From an uncultured delta proteobacterium (GTDB lineage Bacteria > Desulfobacterota > Desulfomonilia > UBA1062): a DNA stretch of 64,000 nucleotides. Location of the stretch: NCBI GenBank assembly GCA_963798485.1, contig CAWCTR010000017.1, forward strand, positions 96,001-160,000. The letters are read 5' to 3'. Positions within the stretch are counted from its first letter, which is position 1, and every line of letters starts with the position of its first letter. Under the pieces are notes generated by a model. That model made no database searches. It worked only from the letters and a program-made list of their open reading frames with translations, and was not told the origin of the DNA. Positions 1-12,933 of the stretch are shown here, one piece after another. Made by a program: the position numbers and the translations under genes.

Positions 1-79
1 CTCGACCTTTTTCAAGTTTATTGTCCCCTTCGGGGATTGGGAGAAAAACCCTCGCCTTCAGGCGAAGACTTTAGTAGGC

Positions 80-402
80 TTGCGGTATAGAGCATTATCG
101 CAAGTCGAGTCACACGCAATATATGATATCAAGTATCATCTTGTTTGGATCACGAAATACCGCAAGCCAGTATTGCGAGGAGAGATAGGAGAGCGAGTAC
201 GGGATTTGATACGAGAGATATGTAAGGCGAATGATGTAGAGATACTCAAGGGGAATGTATCGAGGGAGCATATATACATACCTTTGTTTCAGTACCGCCG
301 AATCTATTAGTGAGCGATTTGATAAAGTCGATTAAGGGGAAGACATCGTGGAAGATGTTGATGGAGAATAAGACATTGAGCAAGGCATTTTGGGGACGAC
401 AC
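80..402 (+). pseudogene. tnpA: IS200/IS605-family TnpA (Y1 transposase), frameshifted and truncated
   Basis: Motif YHLVWITKYRKPVL..EIC...HI. After an AT-dinucleotide slip near 270, another frame continues HTFVSVPPNLLVSDLIKSIKGKTS...KAFWGRH and then breaks off. Short hairpins at 24-36 and 52-65 resemble an IS200 left end. Confidence 0.85.
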
Positions 403-452: not shown

Positions 453-1127
453 TTAGCGAGTCCTGATATTCAACCAGCTGCCAGATTGGATGGTTGAACT
501 AGAATCATTGATGTAGGTGTTACGCATTTCGATATTACCAGACATTATAGTATATGTTAAAGGGGTATTTGAACTACGTGTGTCATCTTTGGGGTGAGAA
601 TATGGTATAGTGGGCGTATCTGTAGTTTGAGTCCAGCTAAAGGCTGCATTATTAATGTCTTCAGCTTGGCCTACTTGACCATTGATTGTTGCAATGTAAC
701 TTTTCCAAGTAATTGAAAGGATCTGAGAATCTTTTAAAATAGTATCTTCAAAAGTCCACACATTCCAAGTAACTGGATCAGGCAGAACGACAGGAATTTT
801 GTAAAGAATGTCATTATTACCCTCTAACCAGGGGAATGAGTAGAACTCTTTATTAGTTGCATATCTTTCTGCAGTCTCATCAAGGTCTTCAAATAGATTC
901 ATGTCAAAATGGATCATTGAGCTTAATGAGGTTTGTAATAATTTGTTGAAACGTTCTGAATCATCCCCCAAATTGGTTTTATTATTTATCTCCATTATCC
1001 GGTCAGGATTGATGCTTAAGCTGAGAGGATTGCTAACGTTAGAAAGATCAGTTTCTGTGAGTGGAGTCATTGCACACAGGGACAATGGCAACAATAGAAT
1101 TGGCAGAACTAATATCAAACCTTTCAT
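453..1127 (-). CDS. Hypothetical exported protein (signal peptide followed by AMTPLTETDLSNV)
   Basis: 224-aa ORF with a hydrophobic N-terminus and an AAAAGGT RBS-like sequence upstream. No recognisable domain. Confidence 0.7.
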   Translation of the reverse strand: MKGLILVLPILLLPLSLCAMTPLTETDLSNVSNPLSLSINPDRIMEINNKTNLGDDSERFNKLLQTSLSSMIHFDMNLFEDLDETAERYATNKEFYSFPWLEGNNDILYKIPVVLPDPVTWNVWTFEDTILKDSQILSITWKSYIATINGQVGQAEDINNAAFSWTQTTDTPTIPYSHPKDDTRSSNTPLTYTIMSGNIEMRNTYINDSSSTIQSGSWLNIRTR

Positions 1128-1178: not shown

Positions 1179-2405
1179 ATGGAATTGGTTCACCCTGTCT
1201 GTTGTGGTCTGGATGTCCATAAGGCAAGCATAACAGCATGCCTGAGGCGAGTGGTGGAAGGAGGCATGATCAAACGGGAAAACAGGATATTCGACACCAA
1301 CATGCGGGGATTGACATCGCTGCTGGAGTGGCTGATTGAGAATGGGTGCAGAATCGCTGCCATGGAATCCACAGGAGTGTACTGGAAGCCTGTATACCAT
1401 GTGCTATCACCCGCTCTGACAGTTTGGATAGCCAATCCGGCAGAGGTGAAGCAGCGCAGGGGAAAGAAAACGGATAAGGCGGACGCGCAATGGCTTGCGG
1501 AACTTCTGGCTCATGATCTGATACAGCCGAGCTTTGTCCCTCCGGCGGAGATTACTGCCCTTAGGGATATGGTTCGGACACGGACTGCACTGGTCAACAA
1601 CAGGACTCAAGCAAAGAACAGGGTTCTGGGAGTTCTGGAAGACACGAACATCAAGTTATCGTCCGTGGCCTCAGACACCTTTGGCAAGAGCGGTCGGGCA
1701 ATGATTGATGCCCTTATAGCTGGACATCGAGATCCAAAGGCTCTTGCCCAGATGGCAAAGGGGATTCTCAAGCGGAAGATACCCCAGCTCGAATTAGCTC
1801 TCGAGGGTAGTTTTACCGAGCATCATGCCTTCTTGATTCAGATCTCCCTTTCTGTCATAGACCTTTTGGACAAGCAGATAGCAGAGTTGGATAAGCACAT
1901 TGACTCTATGGTGGTCCCCCTGCGTAAAGAATTGGATGTGACAAACAGTATCCCTGGTGTCAGTGAGACGGCTTCTCGCGCAATCATAGCGGAGATAGGC
2001 ATCGATATGAAGCGTTTCGTCACTGACACTCGCCTTGTTGCCTGGGCATGTATGTGTCCCGGCAACAACGAAAGTGCCGGCAAAAGAAAAAGAGGAAAGA
2101 CGCGTAAGGGCAATCGTTATCTCCGAAGAATGCTTGTCCAATGCGCATGGGCAGCAGGTAAAACAGACACCTTCCTCGGCCGCACTTTCCGGAGACTCCA
2201 GGCTCGCATTGGGGGAAAGAAGGCTGCCGTGGCTGTCGGCCACAAAATCCTGGTGATTATCTTCCATCTGTTGAACGAGGGCACTTTTTACGACGATGAA
2301 AGATATAATCGCCTTTCACCTAAAGAGGAGGAAAGACAAAAAAAGCGGGCTATCGAAACCTTGCATCGCCTGGGCTTCGAAGTAACTATCTCGCTCGCTT
2401 CTTAA
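1179..2405 (+). mobile_element. IS110-family recombinase/transposase (DEDD RuvC + Tnp domain)
   Basis: Motifs GLDVHK, MESTG.YW, KTDKADA, SIPGV, SAGK, KGNRYLR; intact 408 aa. Inserted between two co-oriented minus-strand genes. Confidence 0.95.
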
Positions 2406-2877: not shown

Positions 2878-3067
2878 TTTTTTCCTTCTAATTACAATAA
2901 TTCAGTATAGATAAAATAACTTAATAAATCATATTCAAGCCCTTTTCAATCGGATAATAAGAATAGATGATATGTGCCAGAGGCAACGAACTGAGTTGGG
3001 ATTTCAAAACCGTTCGTGCCACCAACTCCGATTTGATATGATCTTCCTATTTACATAGATTTGTTTT

Positions 3068-4917
3068 GAGGCAGTCGAAAATCCCTTTTGGGCAGAAGTT
3101 CTTCTCCATCCAGCTGATACATTTTCAAATCATGATTACATGCGTTCTCGGTTTTAACTTTCTTCAGGTCATACTTTCATTCCGATTATACCCTGGTAAG
3201 GATTCCTCCCCTTTTTTCGTCTTATGCGAAGCCATAGGTTGCGATCTTCTCTATATTGTGAACCATGCAGTACAAGAGCCATTGAATGTTGGCCTTGATC
3301 TTCCCCCTCAACGTAAACCTGTTCATCCGTTTATTGGTACGGATATTCCCGAATACCTGTTCTATTATGGCAATCCGGTGGGAGTAGATCTTACGACCTT
3401 TCTCACTCTCGATCTTCTCCACCATGAGCTGTGAGAGATTGATCCCATCAGGTCCGATGGGAACCATCAAGTTCTTTGGGCCACGACCATTCCCATAGAT
3501 GCACGTCCCCTTTAGCCTGCAGTCTCTGCAGTCCTTTCCCTGTGCACGATATAATCGATAGATATTGCCAGTGGAACGATGGCACTTTTCCGATAGTTCA
3601 AGTATCTTCCCATTGGGACAAACATAATGATCCTCTTCCTCATTATAGAGGTAGTCCTCAAGAGCATAGTGGGTCCTGGTCATGCGACCTTGCCGCCTCC
3701 ACTCATCATATCGCGGGTCCCTCGTGCTCATTTGCTTATCAGGGATGTACGCATCCAGCTTCTCGTCCTCACATTTCTGAATATTGATCTTGCTGTGATA
3801 TCCGCTGTCCGCAGTTAATGTCTTCCCCGCAAAGTATTCTGCAGAATCCGCCTGGCCAATCTGACTCATGTTCTCCTTGGCACCATCAATCATCGGCGGA
3901 ATGAGCCCCTCATCATGGCCCTCACCGAACACTTCGCCATGGATGATCACTCGATGCTTCGCATCCACCAATGCCTGGCTGTTATACCCTTGAATCATTC
4001 CGTGTGACGTTATCATTATCGCTGAATCATTGTCCGTTATGTTGCTCTTAATCTCTCGCCCTTTCTTGCCGATCTTGGCTTCATTCTCCTTCAGCCATGC
4101 CTGTATCCGATCAGCCTGCTTCTTGAGCGCCTCGATCTGCTTCTCACGATTGCCTCCGGCAAAGGGTGGTTCATCGTCCTTCCGGTCCTCTTCCTCCTGC
4201 TCGTTGAGCCTCTGCCTGACCCTCTCCTCGATCTTCCCCTTCTTCCTCTTCAGGTCATCAATCTTCCCACTCCACTTCATGGAAGCATTACCGGGAAGCT
4301 TGCACCCGTCCAATGCAAAGAAGGTCCCGCCAAGCAGATTCATCTCCTCGCAGACCAGTAGTACATCCCTGAACAACGGCAGGATCTCATCCTTCATGGA
4401 GGTTACAAACGGGGCTATCGTGCTGTGGTCAGGATACTGCCCGCACGAAAGTGCCATAAAGACCACGTTCTCCTTGCAGGCCTGCTCGATCTTCCTCGAC
4501 GAGATCAGTCCCCGTGAATACCCCAGCAGTACCACCTTCAGCAAAATCCGGGGATCGTATGCCCTCCGCCCCGTGTCATCATTGCGGTACTTCTCATCGA
4601 AGATGCTCACATCCATACGCTCATCAACAAGCGTGTGGATCGCGAATTCCAAAGTCCCGGGCATGAGCTGTTCGTTCAGCGATACCGGTATCAGCATATC
4701 TTGTGCATACGTATAAGGCTTGTACTTGGCCATGACTTCCTTCCCTTTCTGAAATGGGAGAATGAAAGATCCTTGCTCTTTGATTACAAACCTAATATAT
4801 CACATATCATACTGATTATAAAGGTTATTATGGCTTTCTCGCAGCTCTCTGCGACATCATAAAAAACTCCACAAGGTTGCTCCTCACTTTATGCAATCAG
4901 GGTTTTTCGACAACCTC
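3068..4917 (-). mobile_element. IS1182-family insertion sequence
   Basis: Terminal inverted repeats GAGGCAGTCGAAAATCCC (3068-3085) and GGGTTTTTCGACAACCTC (4900-4917), 15/18 match. T-rich flanks may include a TTT duplication. Confidence 0.85.
3222..4733 (-). CDS. IS1182-family DDE transposase
   Basis: Motifs GRRAYDP, SSRKIE, PDHSTI, DGCK, ADSGY, CPNG, IEQVFGNI; 503 aa. Confidence 0.95.
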   Translation of the reverse strand: MAKYKPYTYAQDMLIPVSLNEQLMPGTLEFAIHTLVDERMDVSIFDEKYRNDDTGRRAYDPRILLKVVLLGYSRGLISSRKIEQACKENVVFMALSCGQYPDHSTIAPFVTSMKDEILPLFRDVLLVCEEMNLLGGTFFALDGCKLPGNASMKWSGKIDDLKRKKGKIEERVRQRLNEQEEEDRKDDEPPFAGGNREKQIEALKKQADRIQAWLKENEAKIGKKGREIKSNITDNDSAIMITSHGMIQGYNSQALVDAKHRVIIHGEVFGEGHDEGLIPPMIDGAKENMSQIGQADSAEYFAGKTLTADSGYHSKINIQKCEDEKLDAYIPDKQMSTRDPRYDEWRRQGRMTRTHYALEDYLYNEEEDHYVCPNGKILELSEKCHRSTGNIYRLYRAQGKDCRDCRLKGTCIYGNGRGPKNLMVPIGPDGINLSQLMVEKIESEKGRKIYSHRIAIIEQVFGNIRTNKRMNRFTLRGKIKANIQWLLYCMVHNIEKIATYGFA

Positions 4918-5100
4918 TTTCAAGATCATCAGCACGAATACATCATAAAACCCAGAATAAGATGTTATATCCGCTCGATCCGGTTTTTATATGAATCACT
5001 TCGCCCTTAATCCTCAATCCATTTCCTATTTACTCGACATAAGAAAAACACCGATTCGGCGTTTTTTGTTGAGATACAATGTTGTGGGTCATACCTTGCA

Positions 5101-5210
5101 ACTCAAATAACCGGTCTATATACGTCCTGAGCAAGAGATCATTCCCGACCTCACCCACATGGATAGAAGGTGTAATCAACACCCGTCCTACTCAAATAAG
5201 GCGAACTTAT
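5101..5210. repeat. ~110-bp dispersed non-coding repeat, copy 1
   Basis: Shares CTCAAATAACCGGTCTATAT with copy 2 and GGTCTATATACGTCCTGAGCAAGAG with copy 3. Colinear to the 3' end (..AATAAGGCGAACTTAT). Confidence 0.85.
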
Positions 5211-5431
5211 GTTGATGAATACCTGGGAACAACATTCATCAACTGCCGCGTATACACGAAGAATGCTCAAGGACAATTGTTTCCTGAAGTATGCGTTTTA
5301 GTAAATTGGGGCTTTTACTTACTTGTCCTTTACGAAAGACTGATATATGAATCAGTATCTAAGGCAATTCATCTAAAATTGTGTGAAAAGAAGAACAGAG
5401 AAGAATTAAAATAATGAAAGGTGAGGGAAAT

Positions 5432-5671
5432 ATGGCTACCAGAGGAAGGAAACCACTAGATCTGAGAAACAATGATAAGGATACAAAGCTCATAAAAAGG
5501 AATTATTATATAGAAGAGCGGTATGCAAAGGCCCTTGCCGTTCTTTCCACATTGACAGGAAAAGAACTTTCCCTGCTTGTAAATGAATCAATCGGTGATC
5601 TGATTATGAAATACCAACCAATGACTGACATCAAATTACTCAGGTTGGGGTCAATACCAAGAGAAGATTAA
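5432..5671 (+). CDS. Small ribbon-helix-helix-like DNA-binding protein with N-terminal RGRKP motif, paralogue 1
   Basis: GAGGG RBS before ATG 5432. Beta-strand (KRNYYI) followed by two helices (KALAVLSTLTGKELSLLVNESI). 53/72 identical to 8612..8839. Confidence 0.75.
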   Translation: MATRGRKPLDLRNNDKDTKLIKRNYYIEERYAKALAVLSTLTGKELSLLVNESIGDLIMKYQPMTDIKLLRLGSIPRED

Positions 5672-5770
5672 CCTGTATTAGCTCCGATCTGATCTGATGG
5701 AGTGTCTCCTTTCTGAAGGTAGTAGGGTCAGATTGCAGCTAGCCCAAATAATCAATTTATAGTTATCATT

Positions 5771-6150
5771 GATTGAACTAAGCCGCTTCGTGGCAGTCTT
5801 CCCAACCTATGCTTGCATTCGTATTTAGAGCTTGTGATTACGTCAGTTAAAACCTCTTTGTTTCTAGTCCGATGATCATACACCATCCTTCCTTGTACCA
5901 TCATACCAATCAAGGGAGGGGGTCGGCAGGCCTTTGCAAAGGTCTGGACAAACCACAGCCACAGAGGTATATTTTTTTACGTAAAAAAGGGTGCTCGTAC
6001 AATGGAAAAACAGGGGTGGTTGAGGAGAAAAAACATCACGATGGGCAGGATGTTTCTTAAAAAAGCTTATTTCCTCATCTACCGAATCATGAATACAAAA
6101 CCCATAGACGAGGTATCATCCCGCTCGGAGTGAAGCGGCTTAGCTCAATC
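5771..6150. other. ~380-nt foldback element (candidate structured RNA or ssDNA hairpin)
   Basis: 18/19-bp terminal inverted repeat (5771-5789 / 6132-6150) plus several nested internal stems. Confidence 0.5.
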
Positions 6151-6450
6151 TGTGTTATACCATCATCCCTTCCTGCTGGCACCTCACTCATCTATCTTTG
6201 CCGACCATCCCCAATGCACACATCCCTCTCTCCGTTCACGCCGGGATAATGGAATAACACTAATAGATTCTGTGCCAAATTGTGGTGTTTAAAATTAAGA
6301 TGTCCTATGTGTAGATTTCGTGCCATTGACCACGGTCTGATATGATGTGTCTTACTGCGTATGTTTCAACCCAAGATCATCGTTTTTTAGGCATCTTCAA
6401 ACTGATAAGAAATCGCAGGGATCTCTACTCTTAAGTTTGTTTAGAATAAA

Positions 6451-6479
6451 TAAAAAGCAGGGCACAAAACTAGCCCTGC
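6451..6479 (-). terminator. Rho-independent terminator-like hairpin
   Basis: GCAGGGC/GCCCTGC stem (6457-6463 / 6473-6479) with a T-tract on the minus strand. Confidence 0.55.
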
Positions 6480-6492
6480 CTATGTTATTAAA

Positions 6493-6566
6493 TCACCTCT
6501 TCCTGAAACCTACAAGCTCCAGTTAGCCAGCATAAATGAGCTTATAGCTGGTTCAAGGACAGGTGC
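6493..6566 (-). pseudogene. Decayed PEP-CTERM sorting-signal remnant
   Basis: The minus strand reads APVLEPA... and, after frameshifts, ...LVGFRKR-stop, followed by a terminator. Confidence 0.5.
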
Positions 6567-7084
6567 ACTGTGATGGTAATACTTAGGGGTCTCAAATCCT
6601 TGAAATTTCCTTCAATTCGACCACTGTATTGACCATCATCAAAATGGTATTTAATCATAGATGCAGAATATATTTGGACAAACATATTATTTAGCAATTT
6701 ATATACCAAGATCCATCTGTCATTATTTCAATAAGTTACAGTCAGACCAAGGTTAACTCTTTGGTAATAATGACGAATTATTTACCATTAATAGGCAATC
6801 TATTTCACTTATTAAAGATCTTGTGCCACACTCTCCGCTTTCCCCATACCGTATGTCTGTAACCATGATCTTCAACTGTTCATTAGCCATTATGTCATCT
6901 TCAAAATAACGCACCCCGGTTTTTTTTCAGTCATCATCCCACCTATCATCCACATAACTCCATGCCTCCATATATATTAATCATTGAAATAGCAAAGTAA
7001 TCTGTATCCCTCAGTCACTCTATTCCTCCCCCATCCCGATGTTGCCCAAGCTTCCCCCCTTCAAAAAAAACGGAGGTTTTCTGC

Positions 7085-7600
7085 ATGGAGCTAGTAACCC
7101 AGCAAGAAATTGAGATCAGAAGAGAGAAAGTCCTTGTACCCATTACGATGACAGTCAAAGAGATCATGGAAAAATACAATCTTTCAGACAGTGTTGCCCG
7201 GAGATCCCTGAAACGAGGCTGGTTTGTGAAGAACTATGGAAGGAACCAGGTCATCATAGACCGAGAGCATTTCGATCTGGAGAAATCATACAGTATCGCC
7301 AAACAGGTCTTCTATAAGAACTTCAGGAAAAACCCGGTAGCCCAAACTATCAAGGAGGATCTTATCCAGGAAGCGGTCGCCCTCATGTTCATGCAATCAG
7401 GAAAGATCAGGGAAGGAGCCACCAAGAAATACAATGATCGATATGGGTATTGGTGGGCCGCTCACAACGCAATTCTATCTTACTTAACGAAATGGGCTCG
7501 ACAGACAAGGTACGATGTCCAGCTTGAGGACGATATTCATCCATACATGACCAGAGGCAATAGAAGGTATTCACCTCAGTTCGGATGGATATATTGTTAA
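7085..7600 (+). CDS. Hypothetical protein with N-terminal HTH-like segment and sigma-70 region 2-like C-terminal half
   Basis: GGAGG RBS. TVKEIMEKYNLSDSVARRSLKRG is HTH-like. EDLIQEAVALMF...YWWAAHNAILSYLTK resembles sigma region 2.2-2.4. Confidence 0.75.
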   Translation: MELVTQQEIEIRREKVLVPITMTVKEIMEKYNLSDSVARRSLKRGWFVKNYGRNQVIIDREHFDLEKSYSIAKQVFYKNFRKNPVAQTIKEDLIQEAVALMFMQSGKIREGATKKYNDRYGYWWAAHNAILSYLTKWARQTRYDVQLEDDIHPYMTRGNRRYSPQFGWIYC

Positions 7601-7816
7601 AACGAGGAGGGATGGAGGGAGATAGGTTCAAGATGCCCGGGGCACTTTGAACATGAGTGGTTGGCTATGAGGTCAGCGTTCATTCTATTGATAGGATTCG
7701 GAGGGGGATCTTTATACATAGGGTGGACGCTGACTTTGTTTATTCGACTGAGGGAAAAATTAGCAGAATTCTGCGATTTTTGTGGAGATGGGGAAGGAGA
7801 CTGGCGATACCTGAGA

Positions 7817-7924
7817 GCTCAAATAACCGGTCTATATTCATCAGGGCAAGGATTCAATCATGAACTCGCCTCATTGATGAGGGAGAGTGGGCTGTCCTTT
7901 TCTGCTCGAATTAGGCGATCTTTT
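7817..7924. repeat. ~110-bp dispersed non-coding repeat, copy 2
   Basis: Colinear alignment with 5101-5210 and 8370-8478. Confidence 0.8.
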
Positions 7925-8106
7925 TTCTTGTGATGTTCAATGTCATAAATATTTTCACCAAAGCGGCTCAGTATAAGGATCTGCCTGCGGATAGCAGTTA
8001 TAAGCTTCAGAAGGTGGGGGGGACGATATTGGGAATGGTGAAGAAATCAGGAACAGTAGGTCAGCGTACATCGGGATGGTGTGCGCTGACCTTACCGTGA
8101 TATCTA

Positions 8107-8220
8107 TCAAAGCTTACTTTTTGGCTGCTTATCAAGCTTGTCTTTTGACTTTTGTTTCTGTTTTTTGTCGTTCTGTTTTTGACCCTTTTCCTTATCTTTC
8201 TTGCCGCCTTTGTCTCCCAT
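8107..8220 (-). CDS. 37-aa Lys/Gln-rich small protein MGDKGGKKDKEKGQKQNDKKQKQKSKDKLDKQPKSKL
   Basis: Strong RBS (AAAGGAGAGAGGTA-ATG), clean ORF, strong hairpin just downstream (8059-8091). Below the ORF-track length cutoff. Confidence 0.65.
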   Translation of the reverse strand: MGDKGGKKDKEKGQKQNDKKQKQKSKDKLDKQPKSKL

Positions 8221-8369
8221 TACCTCTCTCCTTTTTCTATTGTCCAAAACATCTTCTCTCAGCATAGTTTCCGTTGCAACCAGAGTAAACCCATCATTAT
8301 TAATTGTAATCTTGCATACTTTTCAAAATCGGTCAATTCTGCTTCCAGGGAGTACATCAACCGGATGAA

Positions 8370-8478
8370 CCTTAAATAAGTGGTCTATATACGTCCTGAG
8401 CAAGAGCTCATTCATGAACTCACAACAATTGATAGTGGAGGAAGCAAAACCCTTCCTGTTCGAATAAAGCGATCTTAT
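8370..8478. repeat. ~110-bp dispersed non-coding repeat, copy 3
   Basis: 25-bp perfect identity with copy 1. Contains the palindrome TGAGC-AAGA-GCTCA. Confidence 0.85.
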
Positions 8479-8611
8479 TAATACAAAGATCTTGACAATG
8501 ACCTCAAAATATCACCTAAGGATGCATGAATCATATGGTTATAAACCAAGAATCTACTTCGATTTAAATATCTCTAAATATTACCAATATAATTATGGGA
8601 GGATGATAATC

Positions 8612-8839
8612 ATGGCTACTCGCGGAAGGAAACCGATAAGTTTGAGGAGTGATGGTAAGGCATCAAAGCTCATCAAAAAGAACTATTATCTTGATGAAAG
8701 ATATACAAAGGCTCTTACGGTACTTTCTGCATTAACGGGCAAAGAGCTCTCTCTTCTTGTTAATGAGGCTATTGGCTTGTTGATAAAGAAATACCAACCT
8801 AAGACTGAGATCAAGCTTCTCGATTTGAAATCGATTTAA
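8612..8839 (+). CDS. Small ribbon-helix-helix-like protein, paralogue 2
   Basis: GGGAGG RBS upstream. Starts MATRGRKP; ~74% identical to 5432..5671. Confidence 0.75.
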   Translation: MATRGRKPISLRSDGKASKLIKKNYYLDERYTKALTVLSALTGKELSLLVNEAIGLLIKKYQPKTEIKLLDLKSI

Positions 8840-8855
8840 AGACAAGATTAATGGA

Positions 8856-9101
8856 ATGATCGCATTGAAATCTTCAACAAGTGATGGTTCGGTGTTTCAG
8901 GTTTATTATGATGACGAGCTCATTGGACATATCCGCAGGAAAAGCAGTTTGAATGGCGATAAATATATGGCATCAATTGATATGAATGGTGAAGAAAAGA
9001 GCAATAATAAGGCATTCGATAGCCCTGATGAAGCTCTCAAGTGGATTGAAGTGAATCAAGGAACCTTTTCCCAAGACGGCTCAGTTCCAAGGTCTGAGTG
9101 A
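8856..9101 (+). CDS. Hypothetical 81-aa protein
   Basis: ORF 16 bp downstream of RHH paralogue 2 with protein-like composition. Confidence 0.6.
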   Translation: MIALKSSTSDGSVFQVYYDDELIGHIRRKSSLNGDKYMASIDMNGEEKSNNKAFDSPDEALKWIEVNQGTFSQDGSVPRSE

Positions 9102-9162
9102 AGATTATGGTTTCAAATATTCAGTAATCATAGACCATTGCAGATGGCACGTGATCTATACT

Positions 9163-9741
9163 CTAACGCAGCCATACACAATAAGGCTCCGTCAGTTTTG
9201 CTACCGCGATAATCCTACGATACCGAGATTTCATTCTGTCTGGATGTGTTGACATGTCTTTTTGAATAACGCAAACAGTAGAGCAACCAAGTATGAATTT
9301 CAAAGGCTTCTCTTCAGCAGAAAAATCGCTGTATTTCCATAGGTCAATTGTTCCACTGACATTGGTTGTCATTATATCGAAAACAAGCGCTGTAGCGCTG
9401 GAATCAATTTTCCCTGTGACAGGACCGACACCTTTCGGAAGTTGAGACCATATCTTTTTATCAACAGAATGTTCTTTTGCGGCTTCATTATTTGTTGTAG
9501 GCCGAGCACCACCCTTGGAAGATGGTTCAACAAAAATTGTATAGGCAGGGGATGACGTGCAAATATCTTGTACCTGAACTGGAAGTGCTTTTGGTGACCT
9601 CATGAGCCAGAATGTTTTGCCAGTTAGTTCAATATCAGCAATTTTTCTGTTAAAAATGACATCAACGCTCTCTCCAGCATGAGCGCCCATAACGCTAATT
9701 ATGCACAGATCACTCTTTAATGCTTCTTCAAGTAGCGTCAT
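9163..9741 (-). CDS. Hypothetical protein, putative integron gene cassette
   Basis: GGAGGAG RBS immediately after an attC core site; 192 aa; no recognised domain. Confidence 0.8.
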   Translation of the reverse strand: MTLLEEALKSDLCIISVMGAHAGESVDVIFNRKIADIELTGKTFWLMRSPKALPVQVQDICTSSPAYTIFVEPSSKGGARPTTNNEAAKEHSVDKKIWSQLPKGVGPVTGKIDSSATALVFDIMTTNVSGTIDLWKYSDFSAEEKPLKFILGCSTVCVIQKDMSTHPDRMKSRYRRIIAVAKLTEPYCVWLR

Positions 9742-9757
9742 ATTTCAACTCCTCCAT

Positions 9758-9814
9758 CGCTAACGAAAAAATCACCGGCGGCTGTAAGCCTTCCTGTAAT
9801 TTGGTTGATTATAC
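9758..9814 (-). other. Degenerate integron attC site
   Basis: Minus strand GTATAAT-caaccaaattacaggaaggcttacagccgccggtgattttttc-GTTAGCG, 57 bp, overlapping the stop codon of the upstream gene. Confidence 0.6.
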
Positions 9815-10654
9815 GTTTTGTAAATCTTTGAGAGATTTACCCTGCGCATTTACCCAAGCTGTGAGACCGTTTGCACTACCACCATGAATGACAGCTGCTG
9901 CAGCACTAGGGCTTGAAAATTCCGTGTCTCTTACAAAGACATATTTATCACCTTCTTGAAGAAGCCCGCCTTCTTCGATTAGCCTATTCCTTTGAACCAT
10001 GACACTCGGCCATTTCTTTGCGGATCCACGTTCATCAAGAACTGCTTCTGACTTAGCTAAAACTACTATTCCATTTGGCGTGAGGTAGCCATGGGCAAGA
10101 ACATTTTTAATTTTGCAGGTGAGCATTTCTTTTTTAGCTTCACTTGCATCTTTAGACGTTGTCTGAACGAATGCCTCGATTCCAAGTACCGGCAAAACTT
10201 GTTGCATTTTCTCCAAAAATACCTCCATGTCCTCCCTATCTGATTCAGGGAGTTTTGCACCGCTGCTCTGGCTGTTCATGATGACTGATCTATTAGCCGA
10301 TTTTGCCAATTCAATTAGTCTGCCTTCAATATACCGAACATGAGCTTTGGTAAGATTTTCATCTTTCATTATAAAAAAGGCGATATTGTTCCAGAAGTCT
10401 TTTGACAAATGGCTTTTTATTCGATCTCTAATACATTCAGCTTCACCTATATAGATCACACTCTTGTTGGTATCCGGATCTGTTCCCGTAAGGAAATAGA
10501 CACCAGAGTTTATGGATTCTTCTCTTTCTAAAACTTTTTCAAACTCGCTTCTAGGCCCAGCTACAGCTTTACCAGTCCAATTGGAAAGCTCAACGATTCT
10601 TAATCGTTTTGGGTCTCCAAATGCTAGAAACATCTTCAATGTTGCTGTAGGCAT
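9809..10654 (-). CDS. GIY-YIG nuclease fused to DUF4357 (RAMA-like) domain
   Basis: GVYFL..YIGEAE..RDRIKSH (GIY-YIG); C-terminal FSSPSAAAAVIHGGSANGLTAW (DUF4357). Confidence 0.85.
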   Translation of the reverse strand: MPTATLKMFLAFGDPKRLRIVELSNWTGKAVAGPRSEFEKVLEREESINSGVYFLTGTDPDTNKSVIYIGEAECIRDRIKSHLSKDFWNNIAFFIMKDENLTKAHVRYIEGRLIELAKSANRSVIMNSQSSGAKLPESDREDMEVFLEKMQQVLPVLGIEAFVQTTSKDASEAKKEMLTCKIKNVLAHGYLTPNGIVVLAKSEAVLDERGSAKKWPSVMVQRNRLIEEGGLLQEGDKYVFVRDTEFSSPSAAAAVIHGGSANGLTAWVNAQGKSLKDLQNV

Positions 10655-10678
10655 ATAATCTCCCTATGCATAATGTAC

Positions 10679-10724
10679 CTATAACTTGCGGCTGAAATCC
10701 GTTCGATGAATTGGTGGGTTAGGC
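10679..10724 (-). other. Internally deleted attC site
   Basis: GCCTAAC-ccaccaattcatcgaacggatttcagccgcaa-GTTATAG aligns with the attC at 9758-9814 but lacks ~11 bp (the L' box). Confidence 0.5.
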
Positions 10725-11047
10725 GTCTGCATATACTCTGGTGGACTTGCTAAGGCCTTTCTTACTACCTCAGCAACTGTTACTTCCGTTATGCCGTTCC
10801 TTTTACAGTATTTAGATTGAAGCCAAGCAGTCAATTCCTTTGTTCCTTTGCTTGCGTTGCATGAAAGGCAGCATCTGGCGATGTTATCACGGGTGACTAT
10901 TCGTGCGTCGTTAACAATATGCTCCCAAGAAGGTCTGGATCCTTTTGATTCATTAGATGGCAGAAATTCAACGCCGCAATACACACAGCGCCTGTCTCTT
11001 GCTATGACTTCTTGTTCCAACCAATTTGGTATATTCCAACGATTCAC
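10679..11047 (-). CDS. HNH endonuclease
   Basis: RDRRCVYCG...WEHIVN...NIARCCLSCNASKG. Likely GTG start at 11047 with an AAGGGG RBS. The C-terminus reads through the attC (PNPPIHRT). Confidence 0.85.
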   Translation of the reverse strand: MNRWNIPNWLEQEVIARDRRCVYCGVEFLPSNESKGSRPSWEHIVNDARIVTRDNIARCCLSCNASKGTKELTAWLQSKYCKRNGITEVTVAEVVRKALASPPEYMQTPNPPIHRTDFSRKL

Positions 11048-11367
11048 ATTCAGACCCCTTTTAGATTCCAATGATACTATGCGTATAACCTGTCGATAAG
11101 ATGCCAGAATCACCACTCCAGAAATAGTACTATCTGCTTGATATGTAAAGAAGGAGCACAAAGCGACAGACTATATGATCAATAAGAATACTGCCAAACT
11201 CCAGACCATAGATAACTGCATAAACTGTCTGGATTCTTAAAGTCCCATAAACCGTTAATTTTGAAATATAATCTTCATATTGCCTGGTTCTTTATCAGTG
11301 TTGGTATCTTTATATGAATCGAGTGAAGGCAATCGACCCATGGCATCATGAAAGATATTCAACCCAC

Positions 11368-11527
11368 TCAACGCCACTCTTCACCTCCAACATCAGCGCA
11401 GGACCACTATCGCCTGCAGACAGCACCATAGACCAATCAATTGACATCAATGAGTTCATTATCAAGAACCAACCGCACCTTCTTCGTCAGGGTCGAGGGT
11501 ACATCCAAGATCGATGCCGGGATTCAT
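11368..11527 (+). pseudogene. umuD: UmuD/LexA-like S24 peptidase remnant
   Basis: PLFTSNISAGPLSPAD..IDINEFII, then in another frame TFFVRVEGTSKIDAGIH; truncated. Confidence 0.75.
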
Positions 11528-11819
11528 CCTTTCCTTATCCTGCCCATGAACAAATCCATTTCCCAGTTGCCCAACCCCACAATGATCACTGTCACCTTCG
11601 CCATAACCATCGCTGTCACTGCATCTGCTCGCCCTGGTTTGTTTAGAATTCCTGATGAAGAGGCTGATTTACTGGATGTGGCGTGAAAGATTTGATGGCG
11701 GGGCTGGGTCGGAGTGGAAGTGGACAATCTGGTTTTGGTGGAAGTGAGATGCGGGAAGGTAGGCATGCTGAGAGATGGGTGAGTTATGAATCCTACTCGT
11801 ACATTCTTACATAATTAAA

Positions 11820-11838
11820 GTGGGACAGGAGTGGGACA
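11820..11838. repeat. Tandem GTGGGACA direct repeat (putative integrase arm-type sites)
   Basis: GTGGGACA-gga-GTGGGACA about 60 bp from the tRNA 3' end. Confidence 0.5.
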
Positions 11839-11853
11839 AATTGCGGTCAAATG

Positions 11854-11885
11854 AAAAAAGGTTCACAGGTTATTCCCTGTAAACC
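11854..11885 (-). terminator. Terminator-like hairpin downstream of tRNA-Asn
   Basis: GGTT(C)ACAGG/CCTGT(A)AACC stem followed by T6 on the minus strand. Confidence 0.55.
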
Positions 11886-11899
11886 CGCTTATTTACGAG

Positions 11900-11972
11900 C
11901 TCCTCGGGTAGGACTCGAACCTACAACCTAGTGGTTAACAGCCACCCGCTCTGCCGATTGAGCTACCGAGGA
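11900..11972 (-). tRNA. tRNA-Asn (GTT)
   Basis: TCCTCGG acceptor stem, AGCTCAATCGGCAGAGC D-arm, CT-GTT-AA anticodon loop, GGTTCGAGTCC T-loop. CCA is not encoded. Confidence 0.97.
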
Positions 11973-12027
11973 ATGGTCAATGGACTGAATTGATAGCCGT
12001 GATTTCACTGCTTGTCAAGTAATGACA

Positions 12028-12933
12028 TTAATAATAGGTAAGCAGGCTTTCGTATCGTCCAACGGTCCCTGAATACACCTCGCGGATGCGTGACATGAGC
12101 GAGCGGGTAATAGGGCCGGGACAGGTGAGTTTGTAGACTTCGATCTGTTTGATAGGCTGCACCTGTCTTAAGGTGCCTGAGAAAAAGGCCTCATCATACT
12201 CGCATAAGTCCTGGGGGAGGATGTGTGTCTCTTTGACCGTGTATCCTATGTCTTTCAGTACATCGATAACAACCTTCCTGGTGATGCCGGGAAGGACGTT
12301 CTCCTTGGTGGGGGTCTCCACACACTTTTCCCTGGCAAGGAAGATGTTGGAAGTCGGTCCTTCTGCCACAAACCCGTTGGTGTCTAGCATCAAGGCCTCG
12401 TCAAACCCCTTCCTGCTCACCTCGGTCCTGGCCAGAAATCCGTTTACATAGTTGCCTACCACTTTGGCATGGACAGCTGCTGTGGCCGGGTGGAGCTTTC
12501 GGTACTGGGATATGCCCACCAGGAGCGGCGCGCTGAAACTATCAGGGTCCGAGCCCAGAGAGCTGTAATCGAGGCAGAATATTGCTGCCGATACCTTCTC
12601 CGGCGGCTTGGGCCCAAGGTCAGTGCCTGAATAATAGGCATAGAACTTCGCTATGCCGCTTCTGACTGAGTTGGCACGTGCCGTAGCTATGATGGCGTTT
12701 TTGATATCTTCAGGGCTGAAGGGGATGCTCATATAGGTCCTCTCGGCGCTGGAAAAGAACCTTTCCACATGCTCATCGAGGCAGATGAGCGCGGGGCCTT
12801 TCTTGGCGGGAACAACGGCCATAACGTCGAATATGGCGGAAGCCCTGCTGAAGCTCTGTGAAAGGGGGGAGACGCGTGCCTCCATCCAGTCCACGAGCTT
12901 ACCATCCACCCATGCCATAATCTGCTTTGACAT
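12028..12933 (-). CDS. Class IV PLP-dependent aminotransferase (branched-chain amino acid transaminase-like)
   Basis: AKVVGNY, GFDEALMLD..G.VAEGPTSNIF, LPGITR, EAFFSGT. Confidence 0.9.
   Translation of the reverse strand: MSKQIMAWVDGKLVDWMEARVSPLSQSFSRASAIFDVMAVVPAKKGPALICLDEHVERFFSSAERTYMSIPFSPEDIKNAIIATARANSVRSGIAKFYAYYSGTDLGPKPPEKVSAAIFCLDYSSLGSDPDSFSAPLLVGISQYRKLHPATAAVHAKVVGNYVNGFLARTEVSRKGFDEALMLDTNGFVAEGPTSNIFLAREKCVETPTKENVLPGITRKVVIDVLKDIGYTVKETHILPQDLCEYDEAFFSGTLRQVQPIKQIEVYKLTCPGPITRSLMSRIREVYSGTVGRYESLLTYY

Follow-up and report, generated by a model that had tools for sequence, protein, structure and literature searches.

A non-coding repeat, ribbon-helix-helix genes and a sigma-region-2-like gene in an accessory island of an uncultured Desulfomonilia bacterium

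The window analysed in this work is a stretch of 64,000 nt of contig C17 (CAWCTR010000017.1; G000:C17:96001-160000) from an uncultured delta proteobacterium of the Desulfomonilia, a relative of sulfate reducers (assembly GCA_963798485.1). Its genome is designated G000, two sibling species are designated G002 and G003, and Cn denotes contigs. Near the left end of the window, a segment of about 4 kb contains three copies of a non-coding repeat, here named R, two genes for ribbon-helix-helix (RHH) proteins and the gene orf171, which encodes a protein with a domain similar to region 2 of sigma-70 factors. In an earlier note, made from the sequence, these features had been interpreted as a single undescribed module. 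The features were found to be real, and they are not one inherited system: their adjacency traces to one duplicated segment.

The GC content over C17:76-108 kb is 37-48%, compared with 50.6% genome-wide, and the low-GC stretch ends at a tRNA-Asn gene (11899-11972, minus strand), in agreement with the tRNA-adjacent island that had been described. At least four insertion sequence (IS)-type genes and several pseudogenes were found in this island; an IS110-family gene and a DDE gene lie to the left of the 4-kb segment (Table 1), with an additional DDE gene further upstream. No genes for a relaxase or a type IV secretion system (T4SS) turned up among the scanned open reading frames (ORFs) of C17:76-108 kb, and none of the 23 Phage_integrase matches in G000 is located on C17.

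Repeat R and its copies

The three co-linear repeats noted earlier were recovered (R1, R2 and R3, also labelled W_R1, W_R2 and W_R3; Table 1). They align over ~125 nt, and the full unit comes to ~190 bp once the copies are aligned together with their flanks. A profile made from the three repeats revealed, using nhmmer, eight copies in the genome, five on C17 and one each on C9, C13 and C30; because the profile matches them at E ≤ 1.3e-24, these copies are not chance matches.

The range of R is narrow. A BLAST search found it in 3 of 61 related genomes, G000 included, and it occurs in three of the 15 genomes of the genus. Among 52 genomes of the family, strong matches to a sequence model of R were limited to G000 (8), G002 (4) and G003 (2), and two further rows (18 bits, E ~0.008) look like chance. 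A pattern scan of all species genomes with the 22-nt core found the G003 contig only; the same kind of scan of metagenomes yielded eight loci, namely copies identical to those of G002 and one new copy. Altogether, 15 distinct copies of R are known, and the clade that contains them is very narrow. Since the wider metagenome and species-genome scans added only one new copy, the power of covariation analysis is low.

A terminator-like hairpin consisting of an A-run, a GC stem and a T-run is located ~75 nt left of the core in most copies. RNAalifold returned no structure for the MAFFT alignment of this part, in which the hairpins are out of register, and the copies were therefore folded singly. 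The hairpin forms in ~10 of the 15 copies with at least three different arm sequences, including double changes of the types AU/UA (3:3), CG/AU (4:2) and GC/AU (7:1), and is missing in R3 and G002_C3b. Homology to the left of the core has ragged edges, 45-173 nt beyond it, and the right edge is sharp, near ...GGCGANNTTAT (also ...CGAATAAGGCGANNTTAT). The best-conserved part, far better kept than the remainder of R, is a 36-nt block with the consensus CTCAAATAACCGGTCTATATACGTCCTGAGCAAGAG, which on the plus strand contains a CTGACA-like hexamer, 16 nt and TATAWW. The last ~36 nt of R are in frame with the N-terminus of a PC4-like protein. To judge from the sequence, the probable origin of R is a PC4-like gene, of which it would represent the upstream region and the first codons.

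The earlier proposal of a system based on the structure of single-stranded DNA (ssDNA) or RNA was not supported, as R folds like shuffled sequence: minimum free energy (MFE) z-scores ranged from -1.9 to +1.9 on both strands (n = 13 copies). At -6.7 kcal/mol the consensus fold is weak, its covariation term being positive, and an Rfam search of positions 4700-12100 at E ≤ 1 found only the tRNA-Asn. R was therefore rejected as a structured RNA, and indels of 1-5 nt led to the rejection of a coding gene on its plus strand.

Table 1. Positions of the annotated features in the 64,000-nt window (plus and minus strands; a dot marks features given without strand).
Feature	Position	Strand	Characteristics
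IS110-family gene	1179-2405	-	family search
DDE gene	3222-4733	-	family search
Terminator-like hairpin, left end of R1	5042..5067	.	read from sequence and folded; A-run, short GC stem, T-run
R1 core	5085..5210	+	nhmmer E 2.7e-36; promoter-like block and conserved leader, sharp right edge; MFE z +0.13 / -0.7
PC4-like ssDNA-binding gene remnant	5196..5285	+	in frame with the end of R1, cut after ~30 codons
RHH1, 79-aa ribbon-helix-helix protein	5432..5671	+	paralogues, homologues, fold evidence
26-nt inverted repeat pair	5764-5789 / 6132-6157	.	85% complementary; encloses 342 nt
orf171	7085..7600	+	N-terminal HTH-like segment (residues 24-44) and sigma-70 region-2-like domain (~59-141)
Long imperfect hairpin after orf171	7668..7737	+	~20-bp stem, G-rich loop; preceded by a small hairpin (7626-7652)
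Terminator-like hairpin of R2	7756..7781	.	arms GCAGAA/TTCTGC, unlike R1
R2 core	7801..7924	+	nhmmer E 7e-34; subtype A, common to C13 and G003 copy b
Small peptide gene (orf56 family)	7933..8100	+	paralogues end after 38 codons; stop lost here
Stable hairpin 3' of the peptide gene	8058..8092	+	z -4.4 for 8000-8150
Candidate 52-aa lysine-rich ORF	8107..8265	-	no paralogue in the genome, no family match
R3 core	8353..8478	+	nhmmer E 3.3e-34; subtype B; without upstream hairpin; left part not alignable with other copies
RHH2, 75-aa ribbon-helix-helix protein	8612..8839	+	Pfam RHH_3 E 0.0013, 19 bits, below the 21.6 cut-off
orf81, small protein	8856..9101	+	17 nt after RHH2

Genes next to R and the orf171 family

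A co-oriented gene or gene remnant starts within ~300 nt of the right edge of R in 11 of the 15 copies, and six downstream classes were distinguished. In this behaviour R corresponds to the CUP (conserved upstream) repeats with which it had been compared. The PC4-like class comprises four copies, two of them intact (C17:87710 and C9; Pfam PC4 E 1e-6 and 2.5e-5, the former value with 28.6 bits against a cut-off of 25) and the other two remnants, after R1 and in locus L099. The remnant after R1 shows 92% identity (90 nt) with the intact gene on C9 and 87% with that at C17:87710. The 38-aa peptide class (three copies) was found after R2 and the C13 copy, with a remnant after G002_C3a; genes of the RHH class directly follow R3 and G003 copy b and stand behind the PC4 remnant in the case of R1. 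A DUF1439-type gene follows G002_C18 and G002_C3b, where it is probably cut short, and a remnant of it follows G003 copy a (three copies). The HU class is represented by one copy (C17:83515, Pfam E 1.6e-34), and the sequences after the C30 and G002_C12 copies (two copies) were left unassigned.

R2, the C13 copy and G003 copy b belong to subtype A of R. Both the peptide class and the RHH class are found behind both subtypes, and the right edge of R must therefore have recombined more than once. The three loci of the genus that contain orf171 differ by whole cassettes. The order is orf171, R, peptide gene, (orf52), a second R, RHH gene and orf81 in the window; orf171, IS21, R, peptide gene and frameshifted RHH gene on C13; and broken orf171, R and RHH gene in G003. 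The IS21 element, an istA/istB pair, is inserted between the C13 orf171 and its R. Immediately 5' of the same orf171 copy, the second in this genome, lie an IS1595 transposase and a P63C-domain protein (L021 7112-8029, minus strand, G000:C13; E 1.6e-33).

Several very small ORFs had been noted in the segment. One of them proved to be a conserved 38-aa peptide gene, which has lost its stop codon in this copy and has paralogues at C13:12518, C17:90075 (minus strand) and in G003. The arms of the hairpin near its 3' end differ yet still pair in three paralogues of the peptide gene. For the 52-aa ORF on the opposite strand, no paralogue in the genome and no family match were found.

RHH1 and RHH2, which had been recognised as two similar RHH-like genes each located downstream of a repeat, share 72% DNA and 72-73% protein identity and start 134-222 nt downstream of a repeat. 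The genome contains ten paralogous loci, including one frameshifted and one divergent locus, and RHH2 is 91% identical at the DNA level to the frameshifted C13 copy. Of the 14 other genomes of the genus, 13 contain the family, at 2-5 matches per genome (14 of 15 with G000). Beyond the genus there was one weak match only, which makes 15 of 121 genomes of the class in all, G000 included. At E ≤ 0.001 a database search gave 209 homologues. Identity ranges from 71 to 85% among the 120 that were listed, and the names they carry indicate Desulfomonilia. In the relatives, RHH genes occupy several recurring chromosomal neighbourhoods, and R is absent in 11 genomes of the genus. R lies within 500 nt upstream of an RHH gene in 3 of 10 loci in G000, 1 of 5 in G003 and 0 of 4 in G002. 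The RHH genes are thus a genus-wide paralogue family independent of R.

In addition to its RHH_3 match below the cut-off, RHH2 matched a PHROG Arc-like repressor (E 0.0034). RHH1 gave no Pfam match at E ≤ 0.1, a G003 orthologue reached 20.7 bits, NCBIfam yielded no match, and a sequence profile search against the PDB returned chance rows only (E ≥ 0.42). The AlphaFold2 (AF2) model contains helices 29-42 and 46-64 after an extended segment, the strand not being called in this monomer model. The Foldseek rows were nearly all RHH domains (CopA-SO, ORF56, PutA, Arc, CopG, NikR and MatP), with a root-mean-square deviation (rmsd) of 0.8-1.5 over 35-40 residues, yet every row had E > 1. The nearest language-model neighbours were RHH_1/CopG clusters (0.92-0.94). 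The model, the Foldseek rows and these neighbours agree on a strand-helix-helix fold of ~45 residues, and the proteins are probably small DNA-binding repressors of the CopG/Arc type.

The domain size and the spacing of strand and helices are those of the CopG/Arc/MetJ repressors and antitoxins. The differences from this set are the basic N-terminal arm (MATRGRKP), the conserved C-terminal tail and the presence of 2-5 near-identical paralogues per genome at conserved chromosomal sites. Compared with RHH antitoxins, no toxin partner was found here, and orf81 follows one RHH copy only. The orf81 gene has four paralogues in the genome and 18 database homologues, mostly of 68 aa, without a named relative. 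A highly conserved RHH family (70-85% identity) with 2-5 copies per genome in one Desulfomonilia genus is of possible wider use.

The product of orf171 had been described as an orphan with helix-turn-helix (HTH) and sigma-region-2-like parts. It is not an orphan: 99 homologues of ~168 aa were found in Syntrophales, Smithella, other Thermodesulfobacteriota and one Chloroflexota metagenome-assembled genome. The domain reading is supported by matches of homologues to Sigma70_r2, by the AF2 model and by VIA-align. Eight of the 47 aligned members matched Sigma70_r2 in Pfam (best E 1.4e-7), the window protein itself being unmatched, and its comparison with TIGR02937 gave E 0.0079 (15.8 bits; cut-off 42.9). 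None of the 47 members matched Sigma70_r4 at E ≤ 0.1. In the AF2 model (predicted local distance difference test score 78), an HTH-like N-terminus of the strand-helix-helix-strand type is followed by a helical domain (65-141) and by a low-confidence C-terminus without helices (146-171).

Sigma region 2 occupied 16 of the top 17 rows of VIA-align (Z 8.8-6.6, rmsd 2.1-3.5), and the uppermost rows had Z 8.8-7.2 and rmsd 2.1-2.8 over 66-78 residues; values of Z 7-9 are ambiguous for a helical domain and may reflect a common arrangement only. A chain from 7D7D, the late-transcription complex of T4, gave the best row (Z 8.8; 76 residues at rmsd 2.3). According to a passage in the paper on this complex (PMC7892883), it includes gp55, a promoter specificity factor; chain F is presumably gp55. 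The sequence profile search against the PDB gave one chance row (E 0.84) and Foldseek no PDB row at E ≤ 0.001. Among viral contigs only one weak locus was found (32% over 59 residues), and PHROGs and PADLOC gave weak rows only. The orf171 protein is similar to T4 gp55 and other region-2-only factors in its small size (171 aa), its sigma-region-2-like helical domain and the absence of region 4. Unlike gp55, it has an N-terminal HTH-like segment and no detectable sequence similarity to that protein, and it is encoded by a lone gene in bacterial chromosomes with a 3' hairpin. The proteins of this family are candidates for minimal sigma-like or anti-sigma-like factors.

In a sample of the phylum, orf171 was found in 11 of 401 genomes, one of them with three copies, and several copies were broken. 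Two of the 15 genomes of the genus contain it, G000 and G003, which are also the only ones in the whole family, and the G003 copy is broken by stops. Homologous loci share 870-1400 nt, i.e., more than the gene itself. Upstream of the gene this shared unit contains an AT-rich box and 3' of it a long hairpin, the loop of which is G-rich (L105, L106, L117 and L110), and in these four loci, where the homologues belong to another family, the hairpin is kept with altered arms. In the window, the region 7601-7800 holding this hairpin has a z-score of -4.5, and none of 200 shuffles was as stable. The hairpin lies directly 3' of the orf171 stop, the promoter scan lists no site inside it, and its position suits a terminator or 3' element. 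No R or RHH gene was found near the six closer orf171 loci of other families or near two partial copies. The sporadic, multi-copy and often broken occurrence would suit a small selfish or phage-derived gene. An unnamed widespread family of ~168 aa with HTH and sigma-region-2-like parts, no region 4 and its own conserved 3' hairpin may likewise be of wider use.

Several long imperfect palindromes had also been described in the segment. A scan with 150-nt windows over 4700-9349 gave z < -2 for 13 of 122 window-strands, and the only clear outliers were 7625-7774 and 8000-8149. Accordingly, two palindromes, the hairpins after orf171 and after the peptide gene, beat shuffles, while the repeats themselves do not. 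The described pairing between the flanks of orf171 does exist, with arms of 12-22 nt that are 73-92% complementary, but a CT-rich upstream tract is paired with a GA-rich downstream tract, and such tracts pair by composition.

A proposed mosaic of independent units

The distributions of the three elements in the genus are unlike one another (R in 3, RHH in 14 and orf171 in 2 of 15 genomes), in disagreement with one co-inherited system. The three loci in which orf171, R and RHH are linked are copies of one segment with 82-92% DNA identity, and because of this they count as one observation. The earlier note had named missing linkage and shuffle-like folding as evidence against a module. Of this evidence, the linkage of genes and repeat is indeed missing except in one homologous segment, and the folding of R equals that of shuffles; the foldback hairpin of orf171, however, is kept across families. 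With a probability of roughly one half, we assume that recombination within a ~32-kb, low-GC, IS-ridden accessory island has assembled the 4-kb stretch, as a mosaic, from three independent units.

According to this reading, R would be a lineage-restricted upstream repeat of ~190 bp, insulated from the left by the hairpin, which would act as a bidirectional terminator. A putative sigma-70-like box (CTGACA-like, 16 nt, TATAWW) would stand ~25 nt past the hairpin in the conserved 36-nt block, which probably also holds an operator. It would be followed by a leader of ~95 nt, whose last ~36 nt would be the first 12 codons of a PC4-like gene. Judged by these sequence features, R could serve as a portable promoter and 5' region and be a hot spot of recombination, and recombination at its right edge may have set it before RHH, PC4-like, HU, 38-aa peptide and DUF1439 genes. 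The second unit would be the RHH pair, i.e., CopG/Arc-type paralogues of the genus that are probably small repressors and act independently of R. The third would be orf171 as a self-contained unit of AT-rich upstream box, HTH and sigma-region-2-like protein and long 3' hairpin.

A number of observations weigh against this reading. A clear co-oriented gene is lacking at four of the 15 copies of R (C30, G002_C12, G003 copy a and G002_C3b), and in the first three of them the right-hand neighbour converges on R. The promoter scan listed the box of R2 only (CTGAGA-16-TATATT), and the region contained 15 promoter-like sites compared with 13.2 +/- 3.7 in shuffles. In about half of the copies the -10-like hexamer is TATATA, which does not end in the usual T, and the -35-like hexamer varies. 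The order orf171-R-RHH recurs in the window, on C13 and in G003, as a functional link would also predict. In addition, R comes from three sibling species and one metagenome contig, and its conservation could be the result of recent common descent and not of selection.

If R is an active insulated promoter repeat, it would be an example of a chromosomal island that places many unrelated genes for small DNA-binding proteins under a common control region, and of the reshuffling of genes by recombination at such a repeat. It would then be the chromosomal equivalent of the CUP repeats known from IncN plasmids. The findings do not overturn current understanding and offer testable leads. According to a passage in PMC6289460 (citing Delver and Belogurov 1997), CUP repeats in the leading region of the IncN plasmids pKM101/R46 overlap promoters and bind one regulator, ArdK. 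Both CUP and R are non-coding repeats before several different small genes, and the conserved block of R covers a promoter-like box. However, R is located in a chromosomal island with copies on four contigs, and the C4 element of this genome, which encodes a relaxase and ArdC, has no R. A leading-region location was not found for R, as no relaxase or T4SS gene is present among the scanned island ORFs. R also differs in having its own terminator hairpin and a piece of coding region, its promoter is putative, and no regulator comparable to ArdK is known for it. Compared with the ssDNA hairpin promoters Frpo and ssi, R has no foldback; the hairpin after orf171 is stable and contains no site of the promoter scan.

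Phage "moron" units are promoter-gene-terminator insertions between other genes that are transcribed separately and flanked by terminators. The R units, whose promoter activity is putative, resemble them, as morons are usually described, in being short and self-contained. They are unlike morons in that the promoter-bearing part is one conserved repeat common to many units and that no phage structural genes are present.

It could also be assumed that R is functionless debris, i.e., the upstream region and first codons of a PC4-like gene spread by segmental duplication, IS activity and illegitimate recombination within a decaying island. The in-frame right end, the ragged left edges, the IS-type genes and pseudogenes of the island and the confinement of R to three sibling species are all consistent with this. 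We nevertheless consider it unlikely, as the right edge is sharp and has nearly the same position in front of at least six different downstream sequences, the changes in the hairpin are compensatory, the copies stand on four contigs in unrelated neighbourhoods, and the 36-nt core block is far better conserved than other parts of R.

The linked order of genes could be explained by a dedicated role of orf171. In this case its product would be a minimal sigma-like factor, comparable to the T4 late factor, which drives the TATATA block of R and forms, with the RHH repressor, an early-expression regulon of a mobile element. The sigma-region-2 fold with a chain of the T4 gp55/gp45 complex as the best row would fit, as would the position of R within ~150 nt after orf171 in all three loci of the genus and the location of the most conserved 36 nt of R round the -10-like box. 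The downstream genes are moreover small DNA-binding genes typical of leading regions of transfer elements, with paralogues in the C4 element. This explanation is nevertheless quite doubtful: G002 has four R copies and no orf171, the G003 gene is broken, the orf171 loci of other families lack R and RHH, the linked loci are a single observation, the intact C4 element is without R, and neither relaxase, T4SS gene nor integrase turned up among the scanned island ORFs.

The opposite strand of R offers an explanation that we regard as doubtful to the same degree, namely a small gene for a small RNA or a 37-39-aa peptide (MIELLLRTYIDRLFEL...) with a transcript ending at the hairpin, like type I toxin or leader peptide loci. 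Read on that strand, the conserved block has the hairpin at its 3' end, where a terminator would be expected. An ATG within a palindromic TCATGA is present in 9 of 13 copies, the start codon being missing in the other 4, and the frame is open through the hairpin to a stop in at least 7 of 13, with an early stop or frameshift in 2 of 13. Several changes appear synonymous by eye, but variability is flat across codon positions (0.48/0.54/0.57), without an excess at the third, and stops occur in all three frames past the hairpin, so that a shared end says nothing about a shared frame. The neighbours of G003 copy a, C30 and G002_C12 do run in the minus direction into R. No conserved promoter-like box was seen by eye upstream on this strand, its folding equals that of shuffles, and the G-U pairs found in predicted helices point to the plus strand. 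The minus-strand ORF was therefore rejected as a likely gene.

A recombination site or a non-autonomous mobile element, similar to an integron attC site or a miniature inverted-repeat transposable element (MITE), that shuffles short gene cassettes is very unlikely. Repeats of the attC type are 60-150 nt in length. R is like attC in having one sharp recombination edge between short, co-oriented, unrelated genes. Past its right junction (...GGCGANNTTAT) come at least six unrelated cassettes, short and for the most part co-oriented; the same classes of cassette recur behind both subtypes, and the three orf171 loci differ by whole cassettes. Unlike attC, R has no self-complementary fold (z ~0; -1.9 to +1.9 in 13 copies), stands upstream of its accompanying genes, and has promoter-like and terminator-like features; its ends match attC core sites weakly by eye. 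No integron integrase is present on C17, where there are 0 of the 23 tyrosine-recombinase matches, and the match that comes closest to an R copy, a fragment of 66 aa, lies at a distance of 2 kb from the one on C9. Terminal inverted repeats were not seen and target duplications were not found in the known copies, of which there are only 15, and the left edges are ragged. Both the attC and the MITE readings were therefore rejected. No better founded is the speculation of an undescribed cassette-shuffling system, in which R would be a 190-bp insulated promoter repeat acting as a recombination hot spot that swaps RHH, PC4-like, HU and 38-aa peptide genes, with orf171 reading the invariant TATATA-centred block in some lineages and the island thus bringing its own transcription specificity.

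The island and its other elements

A possible att site was sought at the tRNA-Asn gene. The genome contains no second copy of at least 20 nt of its end; no att pair was thus found, and a direct repeat of tRNA-Asn was rejected as an att site. The hairpins of the type GTCAGCG...CGCTGAC were considered as genome-wide repetitive extragenic palindromic (REP) elements and rejected, since the exact arms are present in two window copies only. The chance expectation for the 26-nt inverted repeat pair (Table 1) is roughly ~0.01 in 9 kb, and the 342-nt segment that it encloses has no other copy in the genome.

The C4 element (L026 = G000:C4:202000-218000) is an apparently intact, integrative, mobilisable or conjugative element. 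It contains, in this order, genes for RHH, tyrosine integrase, PIN, DUF2958, ArdC, HU, DUF2934, an orf81-like protein and a MobA/MobL relaxase-helicase. One RHH paralogue adjoins the integrase, one of the four orf81 paralogues lies inside the element, and the profile search of the genome found no R in it. The earlier suggestion of mobile-element-type genes in the window thus agrees with the paralogues of HU, RHH and orf81 in an element with integrase, ArdC and MobA relaxase. The scattered copies of RHH, HU and orf81 genes in the island may derive from the C4 element.

To the right of the segment, the window encodes on the minus strand a 281-aa GIY-YIG/DUF4357 protein (9809-10654; PADLOC PDC-S14 E 1.2e-97, PHROG 12629 E 8e-64); PDC-S14 is a candidate defence family in PADLOC. 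It is flanked, on the same strand, by a 192-aa protein without a family match (9163-9741) and by an HNH protein (10679-11161) for which the PtuB-like and Csf1-like rows were weak, and the three genes may be a small defence cluster. Beside the tRNA-Asn gene, a frameshifted remnant of an S24/UmuD-like peptidase gene was recognised by eye (11314-11700, plus strand). Its paralogue is located at C13:15793-16172, and in G003 the gene is intact (L085:2783-3220, Peptidase_S24 E 2.3e-26) and adjoins tRNA-Glu/Lys.

The island also encodes secreted DUF6160 proteins and a PA2779/DUF6627 protein (window 453-1127 and 2494-2877, both minus strand; L020 4221-4724, 14995-16269 and 18284-19672). The DUF6160 proteins weakly match FilA, a putative pilus protein (E 3.3e-10), and three of these DUF6160/DUF6627 genes are near RHH copies. 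A dispersed repeat of 50-110 nt at ~6265-6420 has at least ten partial copies on C17, C14, C9, C10 and C4; one of its ends resembles positions 3013-3042 beside the DDE IS. The repeat may represent a solo IS end. The left margin of the window contains an open-ended ORF (2-310, plus strand) that, by eye, resembles part of a Y1 transposase of the IS200/IS605 type and has the motif HLVWITKYR, which we take to be a Y1 transposase motif.

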